A stretch of DNA of 64,000 nucleotides. Source: Acidobacteriota bacterium (GTDB lineage: Bacteria; Acidobacteriota; Thermoanaerobaculia; Multivoradales; J023). Positions 6,299 to 63,060 of the stretch are shown in pieces (within the stretch, counting starts at the first letter, position 1; every line of letters begins with the position of its first letter). The DNA lies in NCBI GenBank assembly GCA_029263395.1, contig JAJCXO010000162.1, positions 8,798 to 72,797 of the forward strand. Reading direction: 5' to 3'. The notes under the pieces are model-generated. The model was given only the letters and a program-made list of their open reading frames with translations, was not told the DNA's origin and made no database searches. Position numbers and translations under genes: made by a program.

Positions 6299-9066
6299 GG
6301 CTGCTCCGTTGGCTGCTGTGGCTCTTGCCCGCCGACTTTCGTCGCGAGTATAGAGACGAGCTGTTGAGCACGGTGAACGCTCGGTGGCGAGCGATGATGC
6401 GAGAGCAGCGTCTGCAACAACGCCTCGGCCAGGTACGGCATCTCAGCCTGGCCAGGCGCCTCCGGTTTTGGGTGCGGCAGTGGCTCGCGGTGGTCCGTAT
6501 AGCTGTGAACTTGCGACGGGGTAGCGGCATCTTGGGCGGCGCCGATCGACACCAGCGGCGACGCGGGTCGCTTGTCGACGGCGCCTGGAAGGATGCACAA
6601 CACGTCGTACGGGCTCTCAGGACTCGCCCGGGATTCACCCTGGTGGCCGTCCTCACCCTAGGATTGGGCATCGGTGCCACTACCGCCATGTTCAGCGCCG
6701 TCCACTCAGTGCTGCTGCGGCCCCTTCCCTACCAGGATGCCGACCACATCGTTGTCGTTCGGCAAGTCGACAACCGCGACGGTACGCTCGAAGAGGGCGT
6801 CTCGGCGGCCAACCTGCACGACGTGGCGGCCACTGCCCACTCCTTGTCCCAGGCCTCGGTCGCCGCCGCCCACGGCCTCCGCCTGATGGAGGACGGCAGA
6901 GCGTTCAGCCTGCGCAGCTGGTTGGTGTCGGAAGGCTTCTTCGAAGCCCTCGGCACCCAGGCCCTGATCGGCCGGACCTTCCAGGCCGAAGAGCTCACCC
7001 CCGGGGGTGAACACGTTGTCCTGCTGAGCCACGCCACCTGGCAAAGTCGCTTCGGCGCCGACACTGGAATTGTCGGTCGTGAGCTGATCTTGGATGGGGC
7101 TGCCTACCAGGTGATCGGAGTGCTGCCAGCCGACTTCGAGTATCCCTCCGCCGCCGACATCTGGGCACCTCGACCCGTCCAACCCTCGGACGAACCAAGG
7201 CGGGGCGCCGCCAACCTGGACGGCGTCGCACGACTCGCTCCAGGCATCACCGCCGCGCAAGCCCAGACCGAGCTCAATCATCTCGCTACCGAACTGGCCG
7301 CGGCCTACCCGATCGCCAATGCCGACCTGGGGTTTCAAGTCACCCCGCTCAGGCAACACCTCTTGGGTGACGTCGAGTTACCACTGATCCTTCTGCTGGG
7401 TGCTGTCGGACTGGTGCTGTTGATCGCCGCCGCCAACGTCGCTGGCCTACAACTGGCACGGGGAGCTGGACGCTCCCGAGAATTTGCCTTGCGGGGAGCC
7501 CTCGGCGCCAGCTCCCGCAACATCTTACGCCTGGTCTGCGTCGAAAGCCTGCTCTTGGCCGCAGCCGGCGGCCTGTTGGGACTCGGCATCACCTACTTGG
7601 GAGTTGATCTCATCCGACTGCTGGGACCAGATCATGTTCCACGCCTCGACGAGCTCCGGATCGACAGCACGGTACTCACGTTTGCCCTGCTCGCCGCGAC
7701 CGGTAGCGCTCTCCTGGCCGGTATTGCCCCGGCCTTGCAAGCCTCGAGAGATCTGCAAGCAGCGCTGACGGAAGGTGCCCGCGGCTCCACCGGCGGACCG
7801 CGTACCCTCCGCCTCAGAGATCGCCTGGTAATGGCGGAAATCGCCGTCGCCCTGGTACTCGCCATCGGCGCCGGACTCCTGGTACGGAGCTTCGATCGAC
7901 TCTTGGACAACAATCTCGGCTTCGAGCCGCAGGGCCGGCTGGCAGTCCAGGTCTGGGCCTATGACGACAACCATCAGCCCCAACTGGACTTCTTCCAGCG
8001 CAGCCGGGAAGCCATTGGCACCTTGCCAGGGGTTGAGGCTGTAGGACTCACCACCAACCTTCCGCTGGCCGATGACCAGTCGATCCTGGCTCGAAGTCGC
8101 ACCGTGCGGTTTGGGCTCGCAGGTGTCACCGCAGCATCCGACGGTGACCAACCCATCGCTGGCTGGTCAGCAATCGACGATGGTTACTCGGAGGCCATGG
8201 GTATCCCACTGCAAGCCGGCCGCACATTCTCTCCCCGAGACGATCCCCAGTCGTCGCCCGTCGCAATGGTCAACGAAGCCTTCGTGCGGCGCTACTTCCC
8301 GAACCAGGACCCACTCGGCCAGCAGCTGCTCTTCGGCACCCAGGCCGACAGCTCGCGGGAGATCGTCGGTATCCTGGGTGACGTTCGCCGACGCGGATTC
8401 GACTCAGAATCGCGAGCAGAAATCTACCTGCCGCTATCTCAGGCTCCGTCCGCTGGCCTCACATTTGTCATTAAGACTGCATCCTTCGAGACGGCCTCCC
8501 TCGAGACGGGCCCCGTTGGTCCAGGCCTCGGAAAGACAGCCTCGATCACGACCACCGGTGACCCTACGGCCTTGATCCACGCCGTTCAGAAGACACTGCG
8601 CGCCGTCGACCCGAGTCAGGCGATCTGGGCAATTCGGCCGATGACCAACTTGATGTGGGATTGGACCCGCCAGCGACGTTTCAATACGGCTCTGTTAGCG
8701 GCATTCGCAGTCCTCGCACTGTCGCTGGCCAGTATCGGCGTTTACGGCCTGATGTCGTTCTCGGTCGAACAACGGGTGAATGAGCTGGGGATCCGCCGGG
8801 CATTGGGCGGCAACACCCGCGACATTCTGACTATGATCCTGCGGCGAGGGTTGAAGCTTGTCCTGACCGGCGTCAGCCTCGGACTGTTGGGATCCCTGGC
8901 TCTGACTCGTCTAATGCAGAGCCTGTTGTATGGCATCGAACCGTTCGATCCCCTCACCTTCGGGATGTTGGCGGCGTTGGTCATCGTTGTCGCCGTGCTG
9001 GCAGCCTACCTGCCGGCACGGCGTGCGACGCGAGTTGACCCGATGGTGGTCCTGCGGTCTGACTAA
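6295..9066 (+). CDS. ADOP-family (FtsX/MacB-like) ABC transporter permease
   Basis: 923 aa. The N-terminal 'LPADFRREYRDELL' motif is typical of acidobacterial duplicated orphan permeases. There are two FtsX-like 4-TM modules separated by large periplasmic domains. It is translationally coupled to PadR, which is the classic pairing. Confidence 0.8.
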   Translation: MRLLRWLLWLLPADFRREYRDELLSTVNARWRAMMREQRLQQRLGQVRHLSLARRLRFWVRQWLAVVRIAVNLRRGSGILGGADRHQRRRGSLVDGAWKDAQHVVRALRTRPGFTLVAVLTLGLGIGATTAMFSAVHSVLLRPLPYQDADHIVVVRQVDNRDGTLEEGVSAANLHDVAATAHSLSQASVAAAHGLRLMEDGRAFSLRSWLVSEGFFEALGTQALIGRTFQAEELTPGGEHVVLLSHATWQSRFGADTGIVGRELILDGAAYQVIGVLPADFEYPSAADIWAPRPVQPSDEPRRGAANLDGVARLAPGITAAQAQTELNHLATELAAAYPIANADLGFQVTPLRQHLLGDVELPLILLLGAVGLVLLIAAANVAGLQLARGAGRSREFALRGALGASSRNILRLVCVESLLLAAAGGLLGLGITYLGVDLIRLLGPDHVPRLDELRIDSTVLTFALLAATGSALLAGIAPALQASRDLQAALTEGARGSTGGPRTLRLRDRLVMAEIAVALVLAIGAGLLVRSFDRLLDNNLGFEPQGRLAVQVWAYDDNHQPQLDFFQRSREAIGTLPGVEAVGLTTNLPLADDQSILARSRTVRFGLAGVTAASDGDQPIAGWSAIDDGYSEAMGIPLQAGRTFSPRDDPQSSPVAMVNEAFVRRYFPNQDPLGQQLLFGTQADSSREIVGILGDVRRRGFDSESRAEIYLPLSQAPSAGLTFVIKTASFETASLETGPVGPGLGKTASITTTGDPTALIHAVQKTLRAVDPSQAIWAIRPMTNLMWDWTRQRRFNTALLAAFAVLALSLASIGVYGLMSFSVEQRVNELGIRRALGGNTRDILTMILRRGLKLVLTGVSLGLLGSLALTRLMQSLLYGIEPFDPLTFGMLAALVIVVAVLAAYLPARRATRVDPMVVLRSD

Positions 9067-9255
9067 ATCCAAGCCACAGGGAACGTTCTCAGGGTTCGAT
9101 GCGGTGGGAACACCGACATGCATTCGCGGTGCCCCCGACACGCTCGAGGGCACAGGACGGACCGGCCAGAGGCTCCTGCTCGAGTTGCGAACACGAACTC
9201 GAGACGGCTGCTCCTATCACCAGGATTGCACTCATCAGTGCGAGTCGAAGACGTC

Positions 9256-10938
9256 TCATTTTTTAGCCTCCGAGGCCAGCACTCGTCCACCACGGCCGAT
9301 CCGAGTTCGGCGCTCGATGGCAAAGTTCTCGAGCCGGATTGCCGGGCGCTCTTCTGGTGACAACGACAAGATGTACGCCACCAGCCCCCAACGATCTTTC
9401 TCCTCCGGCAGCGCGCCATCAAAGGCTGGCATCGGCGTGCCGTTGAGACCGGTCACAAAAGTCCGATAAATATCTTCCGGTTCATGGCCATTGCGGAAAA
9501 CCCATTTGTTGGTCAGATCCGTCGAGGCAATGAAGTCCCCCCAGCTATCCTCCAACTCCGCGGCAGCCGGCCCGTCACCTTCTCCACTGGCCCCATGGCA
9601 GCGGTAACACTGTGCTTCGTTGTACACCATCTTGCCGTGATCAGCGAGCTGCATGAACTCTGCTGGTGGTTCTGGAATACTGATCGTTTCCGGTTGGTAG
9701 CCACTGCGCTTGGCTTCGAGGAAGTCGTCTGACAAAGCGATCAAATAACTCGACACATCGCTGACTTGCTGCGTATTGAGAAACTGTCCCCAGGCCGGCA
9801 TAGTGGTCCCCGGGACCCCCTCGCGCACCACACGTTCAATGTCTTCAACCAGTGGGAATTCTCCACTGATCGTCGAACGGAATTTGTAGACCCCTTCGGT
9901 GAAGTCACGTGGTTTGACGTCGAAGCCCGCTGCCAAGAAACCGTCGCCATCTCCACGAATGCCATGGCACACTGCACATTGCTGGAGATAAATCTGCTGC
10001 CCTCGCTGCATGGCAATCGTTTCCGGCAAGTCGTCTGGAACCTGCACTGCCGGCGGATTGGGATCATATTTCTCGAGATTCGCCTGCACGGCTCCTGGCT
10101 CGACGTAGGAAATAGCTTGACCTGGCGTCGCAGGTGGATCCTGCTTCGCCCAGTTCCCTTCCGACGCGAAACCATGACCGAATAGGTCATACATCTTGAA
10201 GAAGTCCGCCACCCGACAATCGGTCAGCACTTCCCGCAACTCGTGGTAATAACGTCGGAAGGAATATGTGAACGAAACGCCCTGACCACCGAGCAGATGG
10301 ATCACTCCATCCACCGGATCGACCACCGCTTCCTGATGGAAAAGGTAACGATAATACGGGCTCGTCGAGCCGCCGATGTGTTGGAGGAACTCGACCCAAG
10401 GCACCGGTGACGCAGGATCTATTTCAACCAAACGATCTTTGACGTTGACGCCATAAACGCCGCCATACTTTTCGAAAAAATCGGGGAACATCGTATCCGT
10501 CCAACGATGTTCTCCAATCACATGACCAATCGTGAAGCCAAAGCTTGCCAGGGTGTTGCGCTCCCAATGGGAGCCCGGCGCCCAATAAAAAATCACGCCA
10601 CCTTCCGGCCCATCCCAATCTGTTCCGCCATATTGCTCCACTTGATGTTCGGCAATTTTGTTGTTGAGCGCCCAGAACACAAAATCGATCCAACGCGGAT
10701 CACCGGGCACCAGGGTGAGGTCGTGATCGGTGAGCGCCGAGTCCGGGTTATAGGAGGTCCGCACATCGGAACACGCCTCGCCCCACTCGCTCGACGTCCA
10801 GGCCTGAGGACTGAGGTGATCCTTGTTCGAAGTGCCGCCCTCCTCGGGCGCGTTCGCATAAGCGAAATACACGCACGACAGCCCGCAAACCACGAGCAGC
10901 GGACACAGAACGGACAGAGCGAGAATACGACGGCGCAT
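9256..10938 (-). CDS. Secreted di-haem c-type cytochrome with an ~290-aa N-terminal domain of unknown function
   Basis: Signal peptide. Two CxxCH motifs (CAVCHG, CYRCHG) in the C-terminal half, each followed by a Met-containing segment. The N-terminal domain is unassigned. Confidence 0.7.
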   Translation of the reverse strand: MRRRILALSVLCPLLVVCGLSCVYFAYANAPEEGGTSNKDHLSPQAWTSSEWGEACSDVRTSYNPDSALTDHDLTLVPGDPRWIDFVFWALNNKIAEHQVEQYGGTDWDGPEGGVIFYWAPGSHWERNTLASFGFTIGHVIGEHRWTDTMFPDFFEKYGGVYGVNVKDRLVEIDPASPVPWVEFLQHIGGSTSPYYRYLFHQEAVVDPVDGVIHLLGGQGVSFTYSFRRYYHELREVLTDCRVADFFKMYDLFGHGFASEGNWAKQDPPATPGQAISYVEPGAVQANLEKYDPNPPAVQVPDDLPETIAMQRGQQIYLQQCAVCHGIRGDGDGFLAAGFDVKPRDFTEGVYKFRSTISGEFPLVEDIERVVREGVPGTTMPAWGQFLNTQQVSDVSSYLIALSDDFLEAKRSGYQPETISIPEPPAEFMQLADHGKMVYNEAQCYRCHGASGEGDGPAAAELEDSWGDFIASTDLTNKWVFRNGHEPEDIYRTFVTGLNGTPMPAFDGALPEEKDRWGLVAYILSLSPEERPAIRLENFAIERRTRIGRGGRVLASEAKK

Positions 10939-11111
10939 AGCGAAGCCTCCTTCGGTGAAATCGGATAGATGACTCTTTTATCCAAAATAGAGGACGCAAT
11001 ACTGGATGTCAAGGTCTTCTTTTGCTAGTGTCTCGTTTGTTAGAGTCGAGCCATCGTGCTCGGAGCCAGCCTTCGAGTTCCCTAGTCATCCTCTGGTTCT
11101 GAGGCGTTGAC

Positions 11112-11564
11112 GTGTTCTCTCAAACCGCAGAATATGCCTTACGAGCCGTCGTCTGGCTAGCTGATCAAGACGATGCCAAGCCTCTCGGGGTACAGCCCAT
11201 CGCTGCCGGAACGCAAGTCCCAGCGAGTTACCTCTCCAAGGTTTTGCAAGGGCTTTCAAGGGCTGGCCTGGTCGCCTCCCGCCGTGGGGTCGGTGGCGGC
11301 TACTCGCTGACGCGAGAGCCGACCGACATCACCGTCTTAGATGTGATCAACGCCGTCGACCCGATCCAACGCATTCACGGCTGCCCGCTCGGCCTCGAGA
11401 GCCACCAGCATCAACTCTGCGCTATGCACGCACGGCTCGACGAAGCCGCCAGGCTAGTTGAAGAGTCGCTCCGCAACTCGACTATCGCGGAATTGCTGAA
11501 CACCAGCACCAGGCCTCAGCCGATGAAAGAGACGGCGTCGATCCGTTCCCTGCCGGTTGTCTGA
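11112..11564 (+). CDS. Rrf2-family transcriptional regulator (IscR/NsrR-like)
   Basis: N-terminal Rrf2 HTH (AEYALRAVVWLA...YLSKVLQGLSRAGLVASRRGVGGGYSL). C-terminal Cys/His residues (HGCPLG...HQLCAMH) could ligate a cluster. Transcribed divergently from the di-haem cytochrome gene. Confidence 0.8.
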   Translation: MFSQTAEYALRAVVWLADQDDAKPLGVQPIAAGTQVPASYLSKVLQGLSRAGLVASRRGVGGGYSLTREPTDITVLDVINAVDPIQRIHGCPLGLESHQHQLCAMHARLDEAARLVEESLRNSTIAELLNTSTRPQPMKETASIRSLPVV

Positions 11565-11637
11565 AGACCGTGCCTGACGGTTCGCTCCGGGCACAACGAA
11601 CCGGGTCAATTCCGGGGACCGAGTAAACTTAGGGACC

Positions 11638-12579
11638 ATGCGAATCCTCCTAACGATCGGTTGCTTGCTACTGGCGATGCCTGCCTTGGCGCAGGAGCCC
11701 CTCCAGATCACTCTGCTCGGCACCGGCAACCCAAGGCCTTCGATGGAGCGTTTCGGGCCTTCGATCCTGGTCGAAGCCGGCGACACCCACATCCTCATCG
11801 ACGTCGGCCGCGGGGCGTTGCAGCGGATTTTCCAGATCGGTGCGGCACCAGGCATCCGCGACATCGACTTGGTGTTGCTCACCCACCTGCACTCGGATCA
11901 CGTGGTTGGTCTTCCCGACTTCTGGCTCACCGGCTGGGTGTTCGGCCGCGACCGACCGTTGCCGGTCATCGGTCCGCCAGGTACCGAATCGATGTGCCAT
12001 CACCTCGACCAGGCCTTCGCCTTCGACAAGAAGGTTCGCGGTCGAGATAGTCGATACGAGGCCGAGGGTATCGCGCTCAAGGCCCGAAACATCCAACCCG
12101 GCGTAGTCTACGACGCCGACGGCGTCAAAATTACCGCCTTCGAAGTTGATCACGGTGACGGTATCGCGCCGGCCTACGGCTACCGCGTCGACAACGGGGA
12201 CTACTCCGCTGCTTTCTCCGGCGACATGAAGTACGACGAACGCATCGTCGAGCATGCCAAGGGTGTCGACGTGTTGGTGATGGAAGTGATCAGTGCCGAA
12301 GTCGAATTGGCAAAGGCGGCGGTCAAAAGCCAGGAAGCGATCGCCAAAGTGATCTCCCATCACATCAGTGAAGAGCAAGCCGGCAGCCTCTTTACGCGCA
12401 TCAAACCGCGCCTCGCGGTTTACTCCCACATTGTGCCGTCACCCGCCACCGCCAAAGATCTCATTCCCCCAACCCGCCGCACCTATGACGGCCCGCTCGC
12501 CGTCGGTTATGACTTGATGACCGTTGTCATCGGCAAAACCGTCGAGGTGTATCCGCGGCGGGTGATCAACGAGCCTTAG
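11638..12579 (+). CDS. Secreted MBL-fold metallo-hydrolase
   Basis: Signal peptide. HxHxDH motif (LLTHLHSDHVVG). It begins 'ITLLGTGNP' like RNase Z/ElaC-type beta-lactamase-fold enzymes. Confidence 0.8.
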   Translation: MRILLTIGCLLLAMPALAQEPLQITLLGTGNPRPSMERFGPSILVEAGDTHILIDVGRGALQRIFQIGAAPGIRDIDLVLLTHLHSDHVVGLPDFWLTGWVFGRDRPLPVIGPPGTESMCHHLDQAFAFDKKVRGRDSRYEAEGIALKARNIQPGVVYDADGVKITAFEVDHGDGIAPAYGYRVDNGDYSAAFSGDMKYDERIVEHAKGVDVLVMEVISAEVELAKAAVKSQEAIAKVISHHISEEQAGSLFTRIKPRLAVYSHIVPSPATAKDLIPPTRRTYDGPLAVGYDLMTVVIGKTVEVYPRRVINEP

Positions 12580-12654
12580 CCTGACATCCGCTCGGGGTCA
12601 GCCTGAGCGCGGGGAGCCGAGGCTCCCCTTGGGTCCGCAAGACGCTGGGTCAAC

Positions 12655-14652
12655 TCAGGCCAGAATGTCTTGGTCAGCGTCTTCGATGAAGTCGAGCGCG
12701 ATGTCGATGAAGAGATCACGAAAGAACGGAATGCCCGTGATAGCCGCAATCTCCAGACTCGTTTTGGCGGCCTTCAAGTCTTTCACCGCCGCGGGATGCA
12801 ACCCGCCACCGTCCAAGACCTCGATCGCATCTTCGACTTCCGCAAACGCCAACCCAAGCAGCGACTGGGCGGTAGCGAAGTCGTTGACATCCTTCACAAA
12901 GGTTGCGGTTTCGTTGGCGCTGCGGTTGTTCTCGAGTGCATTGATGACCCGCAAGAAGGCACCAACCGCCACCACCTGAGTGGCCTCGAGATCGATGCCA
13001 ACGCCTCCTGAGTCGACCGAAACCAAGAACTGACCAATCGGTGAGTTGTTGAACGCGTCGCTGTTGTAGAACGCGACCGCACCCTCGACGGTCTCGACCG
13101 AGTTGTTGTGAAAGAACGGTCCGGTGTCCGCAGCCTCAACGATCACTGGCGTATTGAACGAGCCGTCACCGAAGCCGCCGTTGGGGTTCGGCACGCGACC
13201 AAACCCACCGTCGGGTGGATTGTTGGCGGCATCGACGAGGTCCGCCGGTTGGTCCGGTAGATCCTCGACGCCGGTGTTGAAGTTACGGTTCTCGAAGCCA
13301 CCGGTGAGAGCAAAGTTGGCTCCACCGTTGAAATGGCAGGTATTACATTTGCCGGCTGCAACGGTGCCACCCACACTATCGGCTGCCACGAAGATTTCCT
13401 GCCCGCGGGCCGCAACCTCGCTCGATAACGCCAACGTCGACAGGTCCAACTCGTCTTGACGACCGAGGAAAAGCTGGAAAGCCTCCATAGCGTCGAGTTC
13501 GGCATCGGTGGGCAGACGGAAGTCGACATTCGGCGTTCGCCCCAGGGTCTGCGGGAAATGCTGCGTAACGGCACCGATAGCGAACTCGCGCAGAGTACCG
13601 CTGCCGGGTGAGCCATCACCCGACCAACCCGTCCGCTCGTCGGGAGGTGTGGTGGTGCCGTCAGCGCCCGGTGTGAGGGCATTACCCATCGCCAAAGTGT
13701 GGGGCACCCCGCGCATCGTGAAGCTGTTGGCCAGATCCCCGAAACCGTCGGTATTCTCCAAGATAAGGCCAACTTTTCGCATCAACTCGGGCTTTTCGAA
13801 ATTCGACATCAACGCCGGCACGAACTCGGCCACGAACAGCGGATCATCGTCCGGTAAGGTTGCGATGAATTCCGGATCGATCGTGAAGTTGTGTTCCGCC
13901 GGATGGCAAGTGCCGCAGGTACGGCCGTTCCCCGCGAAGGTCTCATTGAAAAAGAGATCGGCGCCTTGCTCGATCAGTGGATCGAAGGACGGGACCAGAT
14001 CACTGGCAAAAACCGGTTGGGTACCGAGGGCGCCGAGCGCTGCCAAGACCGTCCCCGGTTCTTGGCCCTCGAACGGTACGCGTCCGCTTCGCACCCGGGT
14101 GTACATGCGCTGCATGAGACTCGAAGAGCCGACTAGGACCCGCGACTCTACAGGAGCTTGACCTGCTCGGCTGACGACGATCAAGTCGACCTCGAACATT
14201 CCGAAGGCGTTGCCAACATCTGCGCTCAACACCGCACGATCACCCTCGGACACCAGCGTTCCGACGTGCAAGTAGTTGTCTTCCGTTTCCGGTAAGACCG
14301 AGCTGTCATTCAAATTGTCGACCAACCAGACTTCCGAGATCTCGGAATCGGCCAGCCCCTCAACTTCTACTTGGACCTTGCCGTCGATCAGATCGAGCCT
14401 GGCTTTGCCCTTGGCATACGTGTGTTCCACCGACAGCCCCTTGGACCAGCCGAGGCTCATGACGACATTTTTGTCGCCGCCATTCGCAACGTGACGCTCC
14501 GACCAACTGGCGAAGGCATACTCCAAACTGTCGGCTTTGGTCATCGAAATGTAGGGCGAGACAGCCTCGTCCGATGGCGTGAAGTAGTTGGACGCTGGGT
14601 AGACCAGAGTCAGGCTCAGTAGGGCCGCGATGAGAAGGTAACGCTTCTTCAT
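12655..14652 (-). CDS. Di-haem cytochrome c peroxidase (CCP/MauG family) with an N-terminal extension
   Basis: Signal peptide. Two CxxCH motifs in CCP-like contexts (LFFNETFAGNGRTCGTCHP and GKCNTCHFNGG). Also the conserved 'GPFFHNNSVETVEGAVAFY' segment. The ~230-aa N-terminal extra domain is unassigned. Confidence 0.75.
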   Translation of the reverse strand: MKKRYLLIAALLSLTLVYPASNYFTPSDEAVSPYISMTKADSLEYAFASWSERHVANGGDKNVVMSLGWSKGLSVEHTYAKGKARLDLIDGKVQVEVEGLADSEISEVWLVDNLNDSSVLPETEDNYLHVGTLVSEGDRAVLSADVGNAFGMFEVDLIVVSRAGQAPVESRVLVGSSSLMQRMYTRVRSGRVPFEGQEPGTVLAALGALGTQPVFASDLVPSFDPLIEQGADLFFNETFAGNGRTCGTCHPAEHNFTIDPEFIATLPDDDPLFVAEFVPALMSNFEKPELMRKVGLILENTDGFGDLANSFTMRGVPHTLAMGNALTPGADGTTTPPDERTGWSGDGSPGSGTLREFAIGAVTQHFPQTLGRTPNVDFRLPTDAELDAMEAFQLFLGRQDELDLSTLALSSEVAARGQEIFVAADSVGGTVAAGKCNTCHFNGGANFALTGGFENRNFNTGVEDLPDQPADLVDAANNPPDGGFGRVPNPNGGFGDGSFNTPVIVEAADTGPFFHNNSVETVEGAVAFYNSDAFNNSPIGQFLVSVDSGGVGIDLEATQVVAVGAFLRVINALENNRSANETATFVKDVNDFATAQSLLGLAFAEVEDAIEVLDGGGLHPAAVKDLKAAKTSLEIAAITGIPFFRDLFIDIALDFIEDADQDILA

Positions 14653-54464: not shown

Positions 54465-54688
54465 CCCGGCATGGTATGCCAGCGCGCCCGTGGTTGGCGC
54501 TTCGGGAGACTTAGGGTCTACACAGGCGCCAAAAAGTGCTGACACAACGCTCAACCGAGAGTAGAGAAGGTGGCGCTTTCCAAGCGAGGCACCCGCTTCG
54601 AGAGTCATCGCTGCTGGACTGTAGGCTCTTCACAAGAACCCGGGCAGCCAAAAGGCCACCCGGGAAAAGACGGATCAACGACGACAAG

Positions 54689-55507
54689 TCAGCGAGTGCC
54701 TGATCCGGCACTTGACTCCTCAGGAGCGGTCTTGTCGGCCGCATCATCTTGATCCGTTGGCTCGTCGTCAGCCGCTGCACCGGATCCCGAACGGCGCTCC
54801 GACGGACGGACCCGCTCGGCGGCATCGTGCAGGCCGGCGATGTGTAACAAGCCTGCAACGGTCCGAGTGATGTAGAGGTAAGTCTGATCGTACGTCTCGA
54901 TCGCTTCGTTCTTCTCCAAACGGGTTGCTTCGGCCTGTTTGCGCGCCCCGGCGTGATCGGTGAGCACCCGGTCGAGCGTCTTGGCATCAGACGCCAGGCG
55001 CTCGGAAACCCGGGAGTGATCCACATCGAACCCTTCGACTGCCGGCAGCGCCACCTTCGGTTTGCCGAGGAAGTCCACCGTTTCCCGCACCTGCTTGAGT
55101 AGACCTGCCGGGTCACGCAGGGTGGGTCCCGCCACTCCGACCACCGTAAACCCACGAACACCTCCGTAGAGATTCTCCAAAGCGTGGCGGACTTGAACGA
55201 AGTTCCCGGCGAGATCGCTTGCAAGCTCGTCCCGCTGTCCAGCGAGTTCAACAACCCTGGCCAGCTGTCCCTGGTGGCCGGTGTTGACCCCCAACATGTG
55301 CTGGAACGCGCCCGCGAGCTCAACGTTGAGATCGGTGAAGACCCGTTGGTAATCGGCGGCGGGCGGCCCCTCTGGCACCGACGGATACTTGGCGCCGAGG
55401 ATACCGGCGGCTTCGTCACCGGTAGCCCTGATAGCTGCGGTGACCACATCGAACGACCTTCTCTTGGCGGCGAGTGTTCGATCCTGCGTTTTGACTGGTT
55501 TTTTCAT
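54689..55507 (-). CDS. Hypothetical protein (272 aa), no recognisable domain
   Basis: The start is chosen at 'MKKPVKTQ' (ATG 55507). It lies downstream, on the same strand, of the MTase/nuclease pair after a ~430-bp gap. Confidence 0.4.
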   Translation of the reverse strand: MKKPVKTQDRTLAAKRRSFDVVTAAIRATGDEAAGILGAKYPSVPEGPPAADYQRVFTDLNVELAGAFQHMLGVNTGHQGQLARVVELAGQRDELASDLAGNFVQVRHALENLYGGVRGFTVVGVAGPTLRDPAGLLKQVRETVDFLGKPKVALPAVEGFDVDHSRVSERLASDAKTLDRVLTDHAGARKQAEATRLEKNEAIETYDQTYLYITRTVAGLLHIAGLHDAAERVRPSERRSGSGAAADDEPTDQDDAADKTAPEESSAGSGTR

Positions 55508-55936
55508 GAGTCTGACTCCATGTGCTTTTTCGAGGGTACCGGACACCACCCACACGGCGGCGCTTTCGTCTCCCTCTACCCCTTCATGCACCTGCTGGAG
55601 GGATTTCGGTCATGGACGCCAGAATTTATTCTTACAGACCTGCAAGCAGTGCCCTCAACACCTCCGAGGACACCGATCCGATCTCCCATCGGTGCCGACG
55701 TGCGATCGACTCTCACTCACTAACTAGATCCCGTCCCGTTTTGCCATTTTCGGCTCGGTGAGGGAGATCTTGTGGAGCGAGCAAGCAGCGAGCATGTTTG
55801 AGCTTCGCACCTGTTCCCATCTCGTATCCGATAGCACCAAAAGGGCTTAGGCTTCTCGTAACAGATCCGGCGAGTTCTGGAGCGGCGGCGCAGCCCACAA
55901 GGCCGACCGAGCTCTCGGCATGTTGTTGGATGGGAT

Positions 55937-56686
55937 CTAACTACAGTCGTGCCAGAGATGATAGATACGAATATCAGTGGCGGCCCCTTTGTCAGCCACC
56001 CACGGAAAACCACGTTGATGTCGGCTGACATAGAGAGCTTCGGCTTTGCCACGCGCTTCCGCACCCCGGACCTCTAGTTGACGCGGAGGCTCGGTGGTTT
56101 TCAACTGTTCCAGTCGTTCAGCCTTGTTCATCTCAGGAATCAGATGCTGGGTTATGGTGCGGTCCCGTGTATAACCCAACATCAAGCTCTCTTGCATCGC
56201 CCATGCGTAGTCGCCGTCTACAAAACGAAGTAGCCCAAGTCCGCAATAGTGTTTGCCAACGGCGTGAGTCTTATCGATAGGCTTACATTCGACGAAGAGC
56301 GCATCGTGCACCGACAAAACTCGCGGGGTTTCTTCCTCGTCGCTGCAAAGCTTGAAGCAAAGATCTGGCGATTTCTTCAGCTTCTTGAGGGTGTAGTTTG
56401 CAACCTCGCCACCTCGGATCACTGTCTCGTACGTCCGGCAATTGAAACCACGAACGCTTCCCTTCTGACGCAGATCGTTCTCGACGATACCTCTCAATGC
56501 CGTCGTGATCTCGTCCTCCTTTTTGGTCGCCAACGAGCCTTGCTCGAGCAATAGTTCGAACGCACGCAGCAGCACACGGCGAATCAGGAGGATCACGGGC
56601 AGCTCAATGTGAGGATGCGGTAGATCATAGTCCTCGGGCGAAACGCCAAGGGCGAACAGCCCATCTACAGCCTGCTGACGGCTCAT
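55937..56686 (-). CDS. PD-(D/E)xK nuclease-superfamily protein (restriction-endonuclease-like)
   Basis: Motif 'SPDL…(x19)…HDALFVECKP' (D…ExK). The ATG at 56686 overlaps the MTase stop (ATGA), which indicates translational coupling. Confidence 0.55.
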   Translation of the reverse strand: MSRQQAVDGLFALGVSPEDYDLPHPHIELPVILLIRRVLLRAFELLLEQGSLATKKEDEITTALRGIVENDLRQKGSVRGFNCRTYETVIRGGEVANYTLKKLKKSPDLCFKLCSDEEETPRVLSVHDALFVECKPIDKTHAVGKHYCGLGLLRFVDGDYAWAMQESLMLGYTRDRTITQHLIPEMNKAERLEQLKTTEPPRQLEVRGAEARGKAEALYVSRHQRGFPWVADKGAATDIRIYHLWHDCS

Positions 56687-59600
56687 GTTTGCTGAGTCAG
56701 CCCCAACGCGCCAAAGTGGTGCTTGATAATGTGCTGCCCGCACGAGCGCGCACGGGTAATAGTCCACCAACGCCGCTGGTTGAGCAGACCCAAAAGCAAA
56801 CCACGCCTGCCGTGCGCCTTGACGATAATCCGACTGGCAGAGCGCTTGTTTGCTTCTTGCATGGCCCTGCGCAGGAGGGACGCATTGACCGGCACTGGCT
56901 CTGCCGCTCGCGAAATGGCGAGAAAGAACCACGGCTGCCTCCAAGTGTCCGGCTGGTCTGACGGCTCCTCGATCAAGACGGTTTCACCACAGACGTCGAA
57001 GTAAGGCTCGAGGGCCTCTTGCAACTCAGTCCGGAATGGATCCCGATGCTCCCGCATCGTGCGCTCGAGCGCTGCACGGCCTGCCCGCCGATACGAAGCA
57101 GAAGCGAACAGAGTATCTCGGGCAACCTGCACTGCGTCCTCGTCGAGGCCGTAGAGATTGAACAGGAACGTGTCGATCTCATTCCATGGCTTCTCTACAT
57201 TGTGTTGGAGCTGGTGTGCGAGATTCTGCAAGGTGTCTTTCGTCGAAACAGAAAGCTCTGTTACGTCTGGAAACGCCAAGGCATCGAATTCGCTTTTGTT
57301 GAACGTCTGTCGATCGAAGCCGGCACGACGACTCGTCATCAAGCAAAAGTAAGAAAAGAGTGTCGAATGGGGAAGTAGATAAATCAGCGCCGCTAGAGTT
57401 CCTTGGTCTCTGAGCTCAGCACAAGAATAGCCATAGAAGCTCTGAGAAAAAGCGAGCGCCTGGTTAGAAATAAAGGCTCGCGGCTTCTCTGGATCTTCGC
57501 CGGGAGATTGAGGAATAATGACCAGAGGCGGTTGATAGAGATACTTTGTCTTCGGCCAGTATGCGGTGGCGCATCCGGCTTCGTTCATATTGTGCGTACT
57601 GTGGGTTTCTAAGAAGGTCTTGAGACTCTCATAGTGAATCGAGAAGCCTAATTGGGGCGACTCGAAGTTAGGGAGGCTACCAAGGAATTCAGCTGGTTTT
57701 TGCCTCAGCGCTGGCGAGAGATTGTAGCCCTGACCAGTCTTGTCCAACTTTGGATTCCACGCCTTCCATAAGACTCCCAGCTTCTCAGGAAAAGCTTTCT
57801 GAATCTGCTCTACGATCTGCACATCGCGCCAGGTGCCAAGGGAAAGTGCTTTCAACACCCACGGCTGCTCTTCCAAGCGTTCGATGGAGATTGGCCGGGT
57901 CGCTTCATAGTCGACGCGAAAACGCGCATGGTGATGCTGATCCGGTTCATAAAGTGGTGACGCATAGTAAAATCGATGGCCTGGTGGTGTAATGCAATTG
58001 CGTGCGAACAACAAGCAAAAAGGCATATCAACAGCTTCCCACACCGGTGTCTTGCGCAGATCAGCGCCGTTGATCAGGCCGGTAATCGAGAGAGCGCGGA
58101 GTATCGCACGCCAAGCTTCGAAACCTTTCCCTTCAGTTCGGCCGAAGATACGAGCGGGCAGAGCGAAGGCTATAAGCCCATTCTCTTTTTTAGCCCAGAC
58201 GGTCGCCCGCCAGATGAAAGGGAGGTCGGGATTCTTGTCGGGATTTTCGTACACTTCCGCCAGCTCTGGTAAACCACGCTCACGGAGCGCACGGCGTCCG
58301 ATCTCGGTGAACTCCTCATTCAGCGTATCCGAATTGGTTTTGACCCTCTCAGTAGGCTTCTCTTCGGTGCTTTGTGGCTTTCTTTCCCGCAGCCGTGTCC
58401 ACGGCGGGTTGCCGATTACGATGTCAAAGCATCCGTTGAATTCTTGCGGAACGCTCGACCCTAAGCTACCGAGGGTGAAGCGAGATGTGCGACGCGACAC
58501 TTCTTGAGCATCAGCATCGCCAAGCTCCTCTCTGAAGCAGTAGAGCACTTCGTTGCGGAGATCTCGGGGAAACTTGAGTGTCTTGGGTGGTCTCGGCGTG
58601 CCATTGACCTCGATCGCCGTGATGTAGAGCGCTAGCGCGGCGAGACGAAGGGCTGATTCGCTGATCTCGAATCCACGGATCTGGTTGTAGAGGATCCTCT
58701 GGATGACTCGGGTATTAGGTCGCTTGCCATCCGCCTGCCAACGCTCGCTGACGAGTCGACGAAAAGCCAACACGAGAAAGATGCCGGCGCCACATGTCGG
58801 GTCGAGGACCTTGGCCTCGACTGGGTTCTTGACAGCAGAAAAGGTCTGATCCACCATCAACCGTGCGATGGTGCGAGGGGTGTAGTGAATACTGGTGGCT
58901 TGCGCGGAGTGGGGATCAGCACGGTGGCTGAAGCTCTCGTACACCTGGCTGAGCACGCCAACCGGGATGTGTGCAAAGTCGAGGTCCCCCCAGTCCAACG
59001 TCAGCTGCATGGCCTCGCCGGTAGCTTTCCATCCATTCAAGATGGCGTGGAGATGGAGAAAAAACTTGCGCCCGGCACGCTGCTCTGTCGCCTGGTAATA
59101 CCGCTGGTAGGCCTCCTGGCGTGCGACACGATCCCTGGCGGGGATGGATTCGTCGATCAGCTGGAGAAAATCGCCGTTGAAGGTCTCGTCGAGCCAGGCA
59201 GAGGTCTGCGCGGCCTTTTCGGCGTTGGCAAAGGTGTCCTTGAGACCGTCCGCGGCGGGGCAGATGTCCTGCAGCTCCTTATTGAGCACAATCTTGCGAT
59301 CGACAAGAAAACGGAAGAATAGGGCACGGCCAGCCATCGACAAGACGTCGAGCGGTGGCACAAGTGGCTCTTCGCCTGTGCCGACATACTGGTCGATCGT
59401 CTGCTTCAGCAATCCAAAAATTTTCTTGAAGACATAATCCGAGCCCTCGAGTCGTTTGTTCTCCTCGAGAGTGCCGTGAACCAGGCCTTGAAAGAAGAGG
59501 GGCGCTGTTGTCTCATCTTCCTTGATGGTCAACGCCGGATGAAGCGCCGCGTCTTGACCAAAGCCGATAGGGTGGAGTTCTAGCTGACCGGGCCGCGCCA

Positions 59601-59901
59601 CGCCGAGCCAAGCTGGATCACTGCGATTGGCGAGCATCTGCTGAAGCTGGCTGATCCTTGCAGTCGTGGCACTTGCATCACCACAGGCATCTACGAGGTA
59701 AAGCAGCGCCGTACCCTGATGCTCCGCAACGGCATTAACCGGTGCCGAAGCAGAACCCCTTGTCGGCAATAGATCCAGATATTCAATCTGGGCGGGGCTG
59801 GCCAATGGCTCGTCGAGCCGAATAAGGTCGGGGCAACCGTAGGCCCGCATGCGCTCGGTGAGAGGCCGCCCGCTCGCCGCATCTGGTTGCTTGGTTGTCA
59901 T
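56683..59901 (-). CDS. Large (1072-aa) gamma-class N6-adenine DNA methyltransferase, Type IIG/PglX-like
   Basis: Motif X 'SIHYTPRTIARLMVD'. Motif I 'DPTCGAGIFLV'. Motif IV 'NPPW', in gamma order. There is a ~390-aa N-terminal region and a ~500-aa C-terminal (TRD-like) region. No nuclease motif was found within this polypeptide. Confidence 0.85.
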   Translation of the reverse strand: MTTKQPDAASGRPLTERMRAYGCPDLIRLDEPLASPAQIEYLDLLPTRGSASAPVNAVAEHQGTALLYLVDACGDASATTARISQLQQMLANRSDPAWLGVARPGQLELHPIGFGQDAALHPALTIKEDETTAPLFFQGLVHGTLEENKRLEGSDYVFKKIFGLLKQTIDQYVGTGEEPLVPPLDVLSMAGRALFFRFLVDRKIVLNKELQDICPAADGLKDTFANAEKAAQTSAWLDETFNGDFLQLIDESIPARDRVARQEAYQRYYQATEQRAGRKFFLHLHAILNGWKATGEAMQLTLDWGDLDFAHIPVGVLSQVYESFSHRADPHSAQATSIHYTPRTIARLMVDQTFSAVKNPVEAKVLDPTCGAGIFLVLAFRRLVSERWQADGKRPNTRVIQRILYNQIRGFEISESALRLAALALYITAIEVNGTPRPPKTLKFPRDLRNEVLYCFREELGDADAQEVSRRTSRFTLGSLGSSVPQEFNGCFDIVIGNPPWTRLRERKPQSTEEKPTERVKTNSDTLNEEFTEIGRRALRERGLPELAEVYENPDKNPDLPFIWRATVWAKKENGLIAFALPARIFGRTEGKGFEAWRAILRALSITGLINGADLRKTPVWEAVDMPFCLLFARNCITPPGHRFYYASPLYEPDQHHHARFRVDYEATRPISIERLEEQPWVLKALSLGTWRDVQIVEQIQKAFPEKLGVLWKAWNPKLDKTGQGYNLSPALRQKPAEFLGSLPNFESPQLGFSIHYESLKTFLETHSTHNMNEAGCATAYWPKTKYLYQPPLVIIPQSPGEDPEKPRAFISNQALAFSQSFYGYSCAELRDQGTLAALIYLLPHSTLFSYFCLMTSRRAGFDRQTFNKSEFDALAFPDVTELSVSTKDTLQNLAHQLQHNVEKPWNEIDTFLFNLYGLDEDAVQVARDTLFASASYRRAGRAALERTMREHRDPFRTELQEALEPYFDVCGETVLIEEPSDQPDTWRQPWFFLAISRAAEPVPVNASLLRRAMQEANKRSASRIIVKAHGRRGLLLGLLNQRRWWTITRARSCGQHIIKHHFGALGLTQQT

Positions 59902-59985
59902 CGTCGATCCTGGGTTATCCGGTCGTCCGATTGTAGCCGAGCTAGGCCGAATCTGAATCTCAGCGCCCCATTACGGTCCGGCAGT

Positions 59986-60180
59986 CAGCGGCAGCGACAG
60001 TGGCCAGCGGCAGCGACAGTGGCCAGCGGCAGCGACAGTGGCCAGCGGCAGCGACAGTGGCCAGCGGTAGCGACAGTGGCCAGCGGTAGCGACAGTGGCC
60101 AGCGGCAGCGACAGTGGCCAGCGGCAGCGACAGTGGCCAGCGGCAGCGACAGTGGCCAGCGGCAGCGACAGTGGCCAGCG
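59986..60180. repeat. Perfect 19-bp tandem repeat x10 (CAGCGGCAGCGACAGTGGC; two copies carry a C-to-T variant)
   Basis: Read directly. It lies in the divergent intergenic region between the MTase start (59901) and the ECF-like sigma start (60370). It is flanked by CATTACGG / CATTACCG. Confidence 0.9.
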
Positions 60181-60369
60181 CCTGACGCCTCATTACCGCT
60201 TCAGATTAAGTCAGGATCGCAGTAAAGTCAAGCCAGTGATGGCTTTGTGAGATGTTCTGCCGGTTACCAAACTAGACCGGGCGACACAACCGCATGCGAC
60301 GTCAACTTCGGGCAGAGAGGCTTCCTGGGGTGCAGCCCCACGATAGAGGTGTACTAGGCTAGGTGCGTC

Positions 60370-61056
60370 ATGAGCCGCACACCCCAGCGTCAAGCACCCC
60401 AACGTCGGGCAAACCCTGCCAGAGCCCACAGTGACGAAGACATCGAGGATGCGATCCGTGCGCTGACGCCGGGGCATTTCAAGAAGCTGCGGGCCGCCGC
60501 CTACGCGCTGGTGCGCGGCCTCGACCTCGAAACCGCCGGGCGGGGACACGAAGACCTGTACTCCGAGGCTTTGGCACGCACCCTCAGTGGCAGTCGTAGC
60601 TGGCGTCAGGGAGTGGATTTTATGTACCACCTCATCCAAGCGATGCGCAGTATCGCTTGGACCTGGCGCGAGTTCGAGGATCGGCGTGAACGGGCTGGCT
60701 TGGTCGGCGCGCTGGGTGCCGGCACCCCTGAGGGCGGCGAGGACGAGGTAATGGATCCGGTTTCACCCGAGCCCAACATCGAGACCGCGTACCTCACCTC
60801 TCGCGAATTGGCCAGGTTTCATCGCCGGTTCAGTGACGATCGGCCGGCGAGCATTGTGATGCACGGATGGGCGCAGGGGGAGTCGATGCAAGAGATGGCG
60901 CAGCGCTTCGGCATCGCCCTCCAGGACCTACAGTGGGCGGCGCGCCGGATTCGGCGATTTTCGCAACGCGCCGCGCCCGAAGACAGCTGGCAAACAATTC
61001 GACAAGCAGTTCGACAGGCAGGTTCGCGGGATCGAGGAGACACCCATGGCCAGTGA
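60370..61056 (+). CDS. Divergent ECF-like sigma-70 family protein
   Basis: Region-2-like 'GHEDLYSEALARTL…FMYHLIQAMRSIAWTWRE'. Region-4-like 'IVMHGWAQGESMQEMAQRFGIALQDLQWAARRIRRF'. Conservation is weak. Confidence 0.45.
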   Translation: MSRTPQRQAPQRRANPARAHSDEDIEDAIRALTPGHFKKLRAAAYALVRGLDLETAGRGHEDLYSEALARTLSGSRSWRQGVDFMYHLIQAMRSIAWTWREFEDRRERAGLVGALGAGTPEGGEDEVMDPVSPEPNIETAYLTSRELARFHRRFSDDRPASIVMHGWAQGESMQEMAQRFGIALQDLQWAARRIRRFSQRAAPEDSWQTIRQAVRQAGSRDRGDTHGQ

Positions 61057-61474
61057 CCGCAACAACCAGCGACACCAGCTCGAGAGCTTGCTCGACGGCA
61101 TCGTCGAGTCCATCTTGGACGCCCCCGAGGAAGAGATCGACGACGACTTGAAGGCTCTGGGCGAAGACCCGGAGAAGGCCGCGATGGAGTCCCGCCGGCT
61201 CGCCCTCGAAGCCGTTGCGCAGCACCGTACTCAGCGCCGCGAACAAGCTCGTCAGCAATACGAAGACGAACAACAGACCTTCGAAGGCCAGGCATACGAT
61301 CTACCGGAGACACCCCGAGCACGCCTTGCCCTGCTCGTCGCCGCTGTCCATGGCAGGCCACACCTGAGCGGTATGCTCACCGTTGAACATCGCGATCTGC
61401 GCGGACTGCCAGACGAAGACGTGGTCGGCTACCTGCGCCAACTCGCCGAACTCGGGGTGCTCGACGAGCTGTGA
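61046..61474 (+). CDS. Small acidic helical protein (candidate anti-sigma or substrate of the downstream protease)
   Basis: 142 aa, highly acidic, no TM segment. It overlaps the upstream sigma-like gene by 11 nt. Confidence 0.4.
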   Translation: MASDRNNQRHQLESLLDGIVESILDAPEEEIDDDLKALGEDPEKAAMESRRLALEAVAQHRTQRREQARQQYEDEQQTFEGQAYDLPETPRARLALLVAAVHGRPHLSGMLTVEHRDLRGLPDEDVVGYLRQLAELGVLDEL

Positions 61475-61487
61475 GGCCCAACGAGCT

Positions 61488-62609
61488 GTGACCCAACGCT
61501 GGCCTTTCGCGCACTCGGCAGAACGACGCTGGCACGACCCCGCCGCACTGCTGCGCCACCTCGGGATCACCTGCCCTGAGGACATCGATGTCGAGGCGAT
61601 CGCACGTTACTGCAACGCCCGCGTTTCGTATCAATCGCTGAACGGCTGTGCCGGGCGCATCGTCGGTCACCGCGGCCGTGCGGTGATCGTCGTCGACCGC
61701 AACACCCACCCATTTCGCCGACGTTTCACCATTGCCCACGAGCTAGGCCACTGGATGTTCGACCGCGCCGACGTCGCCCACGTCTACACGGAGGACGCTT
61801 GGGGCCAACCTTCCGAACAGCCACCAGCCGCCGACAACGGTCCACATGAGGTTTGGTACGAGGACCGGCCAGAGCAGCGAGCAAACCGCTGGGCCGCCGA
61901 GCTGTTGATGCCCGAAGGATGGTTCGCTCCGGATGCGGCTGGCCGCGAAATCAGCTTCGATACCGTCCGCGACCTGGCCCAGCACTACCGAACCAGTCTC
62001 ACCGCCACCGCTCTGCGTCTCCTCGAACTGGGTTCGACGCCTGCGATGCTGATTCGCAGCTGCCGAGACCAGCCCAATCGGTGGTTCAGGCGCGGCGCTG
62101 GCGTCCCACGGAGTCTCTGGCCACATCCTGAACCCTGGCCCGGCACCGTCGCCTTTGACCTGCTGCACGGCCACTCTCTCCATACCGGTCTCACCGCCGT
62201 AGCCGCCGATGGCTGGATCGACCGCCGAGACGCCTGGTGGTTTCGGGTCAACGAAGACTCGCTGCCCGTGGGAGGCGGCGATGTCCTCACCTTGATCAGC
62301 TGGCCTGACGACGCCCAACTGCGCGCCACCTTCACCCTCGCCGGCACCTGGCTACCGTGGAAGCCGGGAAAAAACGCCCGCGCTCGCTTGCTGAAGTGCC
62401 TGTGTGACAAATGGTCCTACCGTCGCCGACGGGGTCAGCCAGGGGAGACCGTCCTCGAAACCGATCAGCCTACACCCCAGCACCTCACAGTATCGTCAGC
62501 CGAGGCGCTCGACGTCGAAGGCTTCAGACGGCTGGTGGACGAGGTCGCCACACACAAGGGTGTACCGCCGGGAATTGTCCTACGTTCGATGTTGCGGCGG
62601 CCGAAATAA
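61488..62609 (+). CDS. ImmA/IrrE-family (COG2856) HExxH zinc metallopeptidase with ~230-aa C-terminal extension
   Basis: 'RRRFTIAHELGHWMFD' HEXXH context. 'ANRWAAELLMPEGWF' is a downstream Glu. IrrE-like overall architecture. The start is set at the GTG at 61488. The ORF track ATG at 61383 would overlap the upstream gene by 90 nt. Confidence 0.7.
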   Translation: MTQRWPFAHSAERRWHDPAALLRHLGITCPEDIDVEAIARYCNARVSYQSLNGCAGRIVGHRGRAVIVVDRNTHPFRRRFTIAHELGHWMFDRADVAHVYTEDAWGQPSEQPPAADNGPHEVWYEDRPEQRANRWAAELLMPEGWFAPDAAGREISFDTVRDLAQHYRTSLTATALRLLELGSTPAMLIRSCRDQPNRWFRRGAGVPRSLWPHPEPWPGTVAFDLLHGHSLHTGLTAVAADGWIDRRDAWWFRVNEDSLPVGGGDVLTLISWPDDAQLRATFTLAGTWLPWKPGKNARARLLKCLCDKWSYRRRRGQPGETVLETDQPTPQHLTVSSAEALDVEGFRRLVDEVATHKGVPPGIVLRSMLRRPK

Positions 62610-62619
62610 TCCATCACTC

Positions 62620-63060
62620 CGGGCCCAAAAGCCCAATCGACCCTCGATCCGGGTCCCAAGCACCGCCCGGGAGGTCAATCGGCCCTCGATTGGGGTCCCA
62701 TGAGCCACAACAGGCCCAAACGACCATCGATTCGTCCATTCGGCGATCACGCAACCGCCAAACGAGGGTCGATCGGAGGACACAGACCAGAGCCATCGCA
62801 AAAACGAGGGTCGATTAGCCTCTGCGACGACCGTCGAGACTCCAATCGAGCGACGATTGGGGTTCCAACTGTTGCTCGGGACCTCAATCGAGGCTCGACC
62901 CGCCTGCTGGCAGCTCCAGATGGTTCAAACGACCATCGTTTGAGCACTTTCCCAGATAGCGACAGTGACAACGAGGGTCGATCGGGCTGCCGTGCGACGG
63001 CGCAAACTCCAATCGACCCTCGTTCGACTCTAGGGCAGTCTCTCGAGCAGCGATCGACCC
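62620..63060. repeat. Array of ~11 degenerate ~41.5-bp tandem repeats, each centred on a 13-14-bp palindromic core (AATCGACCCTCGAT and variants, both orientations)
   Basis: Cores fall at roughly 62628, 62669, 62710, 62753, 62795, 62836, 62877, 62918, 62960, 63001 and 63043. ORFs exist in several frames on both strands, so the region is probably non-coding. Confidence 0.7.

Follow-up and report, generated by a model that had tools for sequence, protein, structure and literature searches.

The described systems closest to the locus in this study are the Type IIG/IIL restriction-modification (RM) enzymes of the BpuSI, MmeI and Eco57I family, in which a gamma-class methyltransferase (MTase) of the Eco57I/MmeI Pfam families is fused to its own target-recognition region and the PD-(D/E)xK nuclease sits at the N-terminus of that single polypeptide. 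The PglX/BrxX proteins of bacteriophage exclusion (BREX) systems are also large (∼1100–1200 aa) gamma MTases with flanking domains, with no dedicated small nuclease, whilst Type III systems have two subunits, with MTase and recognition on one (Mod) and a PD-(D/E)xK nuclease on the other (Res), the nuclease subunit depending on Mod. Classical Type II systems have adjacent, separate MTase and endonuclease genes. The locus lies in a 64,000-nt stretch of DNA from an Acidobacteriota bacterium (assembly GCA_029263395.1, contig JAJCXO010000162.1), hereafter the window, and encodes a gamma-class N6-adenine MTase followed by a small PD-(D/E)xK nuclease-like protein. This pair is read here, with a probability of roughly 0.55, as a split, two-subunit Type IIG-like RM system with damage-responsive expression.

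Both genes lie on the minus strand, the large MTase/specificity subunit at 56683..59901 (1072 aa) and the small nuclease-like subunit at 55937..56686 (249 aa). The start of the second gene lies over the stop of the first in an ATGA, the junction reading caaacATGAgcc, where the ATG of the 249-aa open reading frame (ORF) overlaps the MTase TGA. A preliminary description of this DNA had proposed a split RM-like cluster of three minus-strand ORFs, with translational coupling of the first two. The three ORFs are present (1072, 249 and 272 aa, the last after a gap of 429 bp), and the coupling is seen in the sequence. As a cluster, the MTase and the nuclease-like protein are a real coupled pair, but the 272-aa protein is not a component of it.

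The Pfam families Eco57I, N6_Mtase and MmeI_Mtase match residues 316–543 of the 1072-aa protein, and motif X (YTPRTIA, 340–346), motif I (DPTCGAGIF, 367–375) and motif IV (NPPW, 498–501) stand in the gamma order X-I-IV. All three motifs show no or almost no variation across 32 homologues, and motif I and NPPW are invariant also in a set of 69 sequences, the most distant of which have 33% identity. The gamma order named in the preliminary description is therefore borne out by Pfam matches and by conservation among homologues. The AlphaFold2 model (predicted local distance difference test score, pLDDT, of 70) predicts an N-terminal alpha/beta domain (∼1–130), a helical domain (133–300), the gamma MTase (∼305–650), a beta-rich target-recognition region (∼650–860), and a helical region with a C-terminal alpha/beta domain (870–1066). 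The best Foldseek match of this model is the Type IIG enzyme BpuSI (E 1e-10, 1032 columns), with further matches to CamA, BrxX/PglX, M.BseCI and MmeI; E values across the set range from 1e-10 to 1e-6, those to BpuSI, BrxX/PglX and MmeI span the length of the model, and the matches to BpuSI, MmeI and CamA extend past the MTase into the following region. Taken together, these fold matches indicate that the domain plan is that of Type IIG/IIL enzymes and PglX, in agreement with the resemblance of the long N- and C-terminal regions to such proteins that had been pointed out before.

The N-terminal domain of the MTase occupies the place where Type IIG/IIL enzymes have their nuclease. Only G22, Y41, L44, L90, A91 and R93 are invariant within residues 1–130 of the 69 sequences, and since no catalytic acid/lysine set is conserved there, a nuclease hidden in the MTase N-terminus is not supported; the earlier failure to find an internal nuclease motif in this protein agrees with this. 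Residues 1–300 have no Pfam or PADLOC match, and comparison of the N-terminal domain with the small nuclease family gave an hhalign probability of <2%. Homologues of the MTase share a mean identity of 57% with the window protein and are conserved over its whole length, identity being lowest at 441–520, a low-confidence insertion, and at 681–800, inside the putative recognition region.

In the small subunit, E57, D108, E133 and K135 are invariant among 108 diverse relatives with a mean column identity of 26%, as are Y147, G151, Y160, R225, H243 and W245. The window protein reads P107-D108 and E133-C-K135, and, as judged from this alignment, E57/D108/E133-x-K135 is a classical PD-(D/E)xK signature, which upholds the assignment made in the preliminary description. 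In the AlphaFold2 model of the 249-aa protein (pLDDT 75.7, predicted template modelling score 0.79), a helix at 57–75 is followed by strands at 86–88, 109–115 and 130–137, helices at 144–151 and 153–156, and a strand at 166–173. The predicted order is alpha-beta-beta-beta-alpha-beta, as in PD-(D/E)xK nucleases, with E57 on the helix, D108 just ahead of strand two, and both E133 and K135 in strand three. Support for the motif from structure prediction is thus partial, as the order of secondary structure agrees but Foldseek returned no significant match of the model to solved structures. Searches of the PDB with the family profile and the sequence (phmmer, hmmsearch) gave no sequence match either. 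A zinc site, considered from the Cys and His residues of close homologues, was rejected; the Cys residues are unconserved in the wider family, in which, of these residues, only H243 is invariant and H223 nearly so.

None of the 108 nuclease members has a match in Pfam 2025, NCBIfam 2026 or PADLOC 2023, and RefSeq labels the family as hypothetical protein. Homologues of the nuclease fall into 548 clusters at 90% identity, and into 584 representatives at 50% identity with E values up to 1e-3. Among the best 150 matches listed, those of near-full length are free-standing proteins of ∼230–290 aa and the shorter ones are fragments.

Related loci were compared in two sets, one seeded with the nuclease (80 species-representative genome loci) and one with the MTase (80 metagenome loci). 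An MTase homologue lies directly upstream in every nuclease-seeded locus with enough upstream DNA, and the nuclease is present in 63/63 MTase-seeded loci with ≥300 nt downstream. Recurring as it does in all related loci for which sufficient DNA is available, the pairing goes far beyond what chance would give. The junction, where the MTase ORF is intact (59 loci), is an ATGA in 47, a 1-nt overlap in seven and a small gap in five. Pairwise identities of the MTase and of the nuclease co-vary (r = 0.95), a value reached in 0/999 permutations. A remote member (P0385, in loci L085/L086) has a 1069-aa MTase and a 4-nt overlap. From these homologous sequences, the pair is evidently one member of a large and widespread family, something that the preliminary description had missed.

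The family is found in at least eight phyla, with hosts among the Acidobacteriota, Verrucomicrobiota, Planctomycetota, Alpha- and Gammaproteobacteria, Desulfobacterota, Bacteroidales and Nitrospinota. It is patchily distributed, and sequence identities of the pair are incongruent with taxonomy. Copies are carried on plasmid NZ_CP017887.1 of Pseudomonas frederiksbergensis ERDD5:01 and plasmid NZ_CP049243.1 of Allorhizobium pseudoryzae DSM 19479, where RefSeq names the two proteins ‘N-6 DNA methylase’ and ‘hypothetical protein’. The MTase-nuclease pair spreads horizontally as a unit. An origin from phages was rejected, as no pair was found in 50,697 phage records and IMG/VR gave a single remote match.

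Defence genes are frequent neighbours of the pair. One locus carries a Type I RM system with AIPR together with a HEPN AbiU2 gene, another has a second RM system nearby, and a third has a Type III cyclic oligonucleotide-based antiphage signalling system (CBASS) beside TnsD; CBASS, SIR2 and DarT genes are found in the neighbourhood of a plasmid-borne copy. In two metagenome-assembled genomes of Thermoanaerobaculia/Acidobacteriota (L169 and L171, 10700–13800), the module lies at the same chromosomal site, between SGL-like and TACO1/YebC genes, and the cargo downstream differs, being pYEATS with an AAA_21 ATPase in one and DUF429, DUF4276 and AAA_21 in the other. This site looks like a defence hotspot.

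Compared with Type IIG/IIL enzymes, the large subunit has the same order of N-terminal alpha/beta domain, helical linker, MTase and target-recognition region, the difference being that the PD-(D/E)xK nuclease is here a separate, coupled 249-aa protein. The best PADLOC matches of the window MTase are the REase_MTase_IIG models, of which only ∼120 of ∼1020 profile positions are covered. The BrxX/PglX structures 9ewz, 8c45 and 8q56 are matched by Foldseek over ∼1000 columns and the PADLOC PglX models weakly, whereas the NCBIfam PglX scores are 27–41 bits (best 41.3, cut-off 400) against cut-offs of 400–900. No BrxC/PglY, PglZ, BrxL or other BREX genes were found in the window or in the contexts of six further loci (L001, L002 and L168–L171). 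In Type III systems the MTase of Mod belongs to the beta class and Res contains an SF2 helicase motor, whereas the window pair has a gamma MTase and a 249-aa partner with no ATPase or helicase match. Scans with Pfam, PADLOC and NCBIfam detected no BREX or Type I partners among the window neighbours, including HsdS or HsdR near the module, and the MTase matches Type I MTase models over the catalytic core only. The same absences had been noted in the preliminary description, which had also placed the combination outside the standard Type I, II, IIG, III and BREX layouts; for Type I, fused Type IIG, Type III and BREX this placement stands, the defining features of each being missing. The pair fits only the loose definition of Type II, namely adjacent R and M genes. 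No named system with this nuclease family was found in Pfam 2025, NCBIfam 2026 or PADLOC 2023 (REBASE and DefenseFinder lay outside the search), and no description of a LexA-MTase-nuclease or split Type IIG system was found in the literature searched.

The LexA component of such an arrangement is present in many relatives, in which the end of a LexA-type gene, of ∼205–245 aa and carrying both LexA_DNA_bind and Peptidase_S24 domains, meets the start of the MTase gene. It was counted in 27 nuclease-seeded loci and in 37/66 MTase-seeded loci, about half of the relatives, and had gone unnoticed in the preliminary description. The Ala-Gly cleavage site and the catalytic Ser and Lys, identified by reference to E. 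coli numbering, are 100% conserved in 52 sequences, and a palindrome, ATACTG-N10-CAGTAT, which is like the E. coli SOS box consensus, lies 20–60 nt upstream of the LexA start in 31/54 unique loci. These relatives resemble LexA/SOS-controlled operons in having a true LexA type with an SOS-box-like operator, and differ from them in that the regulator is a module-borne paralogue travelling with the pair across phyla. In other relatives the upstream gene is XRE, MerR-like or a small unclassified gene. The window module has neither a LexA homologue nor an ATACTG-N10-CAGTAT box nearby. Module-borne LexA paralogues with the operator occur across several phyla (e.g., L050 6220–6837, L078 6262–6945 and L170 609–1151), including Alphaproteobacteria such as Bradyrhizobium (L071), a class whose SOS box is GTTC-N7-GTTC.

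In the window, the MTase operon is faced by a divergent trio of genes on the plus strand, which the preliminary description had likewise overlooked. The first of these (60370..61056, 228 aa) encodes a sigma-70-like protein with a weak NCBIfam sigma-E match (E 0.068); a homologue (P0392) is sigma24-family by JGI name, and an orthologue with 73% identity heads the same trio in a related genome (GCA_029263355.1, JAJCXQ010000394.1), referred to as L174. The family of this protein is tiny, numbering 12 proteins in 5.8 billion. The second gene (61046..61474) encodes a 142-aa protein, 82% identical to its L174 orthologue, in the position of CapH, directly upstream of the peptidase. The third (61383..62609, the true start likely being the GTG at 61488) encodes a CapP-like M78 (ImmA/IrrE) metallopeptidase, matching PADLOC capP with E 5.6e-50 over profile positions 11–241 of 242 and Pfam Peptidase_M78 with E 7.8e-15, and it is 77% identical to its L174 orthologue.

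CapH/CapP regulators are reported to sit upstream of the immune operons that they control and in the opposite orientation, and 24 such systems include a sigma-70-family factor (10.1101/2022.04.27.489752). The regulators respond to single-stranded DNA (ssDNA) arising from DNA damage, and a sensing mechanism has been described (10.64898/2026.05.16.725639). The window trio is like CapH/CapP-regulated operons (CBASS, DISARM and others) in having a CapP-family peptidase upstream and opposite, together with a sigma-like gene, and differs in that the 142-aa protein in the CapH position has no helix-turn-helix (HTH) detectable with Pfam or NCBIfam. CapH/CapP regulators accompanied by such an MTase-nuclease pair are not described in the preprint text consulted.

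Comparison with L174 also bears on how the module came to lie beside these genes. By blastn, window 54656–55624 corresponds to L174 5059–6022 and window 60423–63056 to L174 6191–8825, whilst the segment between them (55625..60422), which holds the MTase, the nuclease and a tandem array, is absent from L174. The module is therefore an inserted cargo, and the lower GC content of the inserted segment (0.54–0.58, against ∼0.61 elsewhere) is consistent with this. A search for transposon-like terminal repeats around the segment gave none that were convincing.

L174 carries the same trio at 73–82% identity and, downstream of it (8936–12699), another MTase, of 1031 aa (24% identity), coupled to a 223-aa protein, which hhalign identifies as a remote relative within the nuclease family (probability 96.8%, E 2e-10). 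As the same trio stands beside a pair of its own in L174, its association with MTase-nuclease pairs of this design is a recurrent one. For the 1031-aa MTase, two PADLOC REase_MTase_IIG models, PDLC03603 and PDLC03623, give matches with E values of ∼1e-51 to 1e-55, and some ‘Type IIG’ models and annotations may represent the large subunit of split systems.

Under the reading preferred here, the 1072-aa subunit would recognise a DNA target and methylate adenine within that motif to mark the host genome, and the 249-aa protein, made from the same mRNA through translational coupling, would supply cleavage. The large subunit would probably recruit the nuclease into a complex on unmethylated DNA, docking probably on the conserved extra domains. 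Expression would be tied to the sensing of DNA damage or ssDNA; in about half of the relatives this would be done by the dedicated self-cleaving LexA with its ATACTG-N10-CAGTAT operator, and in the window presumably by the divergent trio beside which the pair inserted. A broader proposal, in which the family is an unrecognised RM class with a Type IIG/PglX-like subunit, cleavage outsourced to a PD-(D/E)xK subunit of an undescribed family, coupling to a damage sensor (LexA or a CapP cassette), a second-line role, and wide occurrence in soil Acidobacteriota, Verrucomicrobiota, Planctomycetota and Proteobacteria, is more tentative and falls slightly short of an even chance.

Several points weigh against the split-system reading. 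The recognition region of the MTase is only mildly less conserved than the rest, and so less variable than a diversifying RM family would predict. The agreement of the nuclease model with PD-(D/E)xK enzymes lies in the order of secondary structure. Methylation, cleavage and phage protection are predictions from sequence and models. Regulation of the pair by the trio is suggested by position as its sole basis, with no HTH in the 142-aa protein and a weak sigma assignment. Finally, a nuclease of 250 aa could act alone, as in ordinary Type II systems.

This last possibility makes the 249-aa protein a self-sufficient, site-specific endonuclease that is independent of an unusually large MTase, with the family consisting of isoschizomers. 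The size of the protein is typical of Type IIP enzymes, the R and M genes are adjacent, and the similar conservation of both proteins is as expected with one common target. It leaves aside, however, ∼500 aa of strongly conserved extra domains in the MTase (1–300 and 870–1072), beyond a core of MTase and recognition region that suffices in CamA and M.BseCI, as well as the near-universal ATGA coupling; that remote pairs (24% and 18% identity) keep the architecture argues for a structural partnership, and an ordinary Type II system is considered unlikely. Slightly less likely again is a damage-triggered toxin or abortive-infection module, with the nuclease as toxin and the MTase as antidote or targeting factor, in which LexA or CapP de-repression after DNA damage would unleash self-DNA cleavage or growth arrest instead of selectively restricting foreign DNA. 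The dedicated LexA with an SOS-type operator in relatives, the CapP-like regulator in the window and the occurrence in defence islands all favour it, and CapH/CapP have been described on abortive-infection systems (10.1101/2022.04.27.489752). With the repressor first in the operon, however, autoregulated basal expression of all three genes would be expected, about half of the loci are without such a regulator, and the invariance of the MTase catalytic motifs suggests that methylation matters.

An SOS-linked role in repair or strand discrimination, like that of Dam and MutH, in which the MTase marks parental DNA and the nuclease nicks the unmethylated strand in the course of damage repair, would account for a LexA gene whose CTG-N10-CAG box looks canonical, for the lack of a hypervariable recognition region in the MTase, and for a PD-(D/E)xK protein of about the size of MutH. 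The patchy distribution that is incongruent with taxonomy, the plasmid-borne copies, the location in defence islands and the lower-GC insertion in the window all speak against such a role, the contexts read showed neither MutS nor MutL partners, and MutH is not among the Foldseek matches listed, leaving this explanation very improbable. The least probable is an epigenetic system without cleavage, like BREX or an orphan MTase, in which the small protein would be an inert adaptor with a nuclease fold. Although the MTase fold does resemble PglX/BrxX and no solved nuclease is significantly matched by the nuclease model, E57, D108, E133 and K135 are strictly invariant over 108 sequences, which is the behaviour of an active site; BREX partners are absent, and the NCBIfam PglX scores fall far short of the cut-offs (41 bits, with 400 required).

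If the split-system reading is true, RM systems gain a subunit architecture intermediate between fused Type IIG, Type III Mod/Res and BREX, and hundreds of clusters now annotated as ‘hypothetical protein’ become a new nuclease family. Restriction-like genes with their own SOS-type repressor would also bear on why some defence operons are damage-induced, and annotation of defence systems in poorly studied soil phyla would improve. Should the large subunit alone set specificity, the pair is a possible source of engineerable enzymes. Cultured carriers include Allorhizobium pseudoryzae DSM 19479, Pseudomonas frederiksbergensis ERDD5:01, Mesorhizobium montanum MSK 1335 and Bradyrhizobium pachyrhizi PAC 48. 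This is not a new principle, but a widespread, unannotated architecture with an unusual LexA- and CapP-type link to damage sensing.

The MTase operon and the regulator genes are separated by a divergent control region (59902..60369). It contains a single sigma-70-like site on the minus strand (59957..59930), a consensus match of a kind found in no more than the number expected by chance. Upstream of this promoter-like site, and still within the control region, is a 19-bp tandem array of 10.3 copies of CAGCGGCAGCGACAGTGGC (59986..60180), with 0 matches expected by chance. The array is nearly perfect, and every unit contains the palindrome TGGCCA. In 61 other related loci, no comparable tandem array precedes the MTase. 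Binding sites for a regulator and a copy-number switch are both possibilities for its function.

On the other side of the module, the 272-aa ORF (54689..55507, minus strand) is a real gene that lies outside it. The preliminary description had counted this protein in the cluster, but as a third component it was rejected, with no homologues in 83 module loci and its place as a flank gene evident from L174 synteny. In L174 a 270-aa orthologue (73% identical) abuts the sigma-like gene and trio with no MTase pair between, and the 272-aa gene is a flanking gene because its orthologue stands beside the trio without an intervening MTase-nuclease pair. The protein has no match in Pfam, PADLOC or NCBIfam, in keeping with its earlier description as belonging to no recognisable family, and no plasmid match. 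Further left-hand neighbours are genes for an aldehyde dehydrogenase, a periplasmic binding protein and other unrelated functions; a search for longer context of the window's contig gave only a Logan contig of 3.3 kb. A second ORF, of 312 aa (window 54511–55449, minus strand), runs across the 272-aa one in a different frame; its product is rich in Arg, Ser and Pro, and it looks like an off-frame artefact of high GC content. The conserved frame is that of the 272-aa ORF (73% to L174). Just past the 272-aa stop (window 54639–54664, minus strand) is a GC-rich hairpin with a T-rich tail, at a type of site that is not above its chance count; it resembles a terminator, which suggests that the 272-aa gene is transcribed apart from the downstream binding-protein gene.

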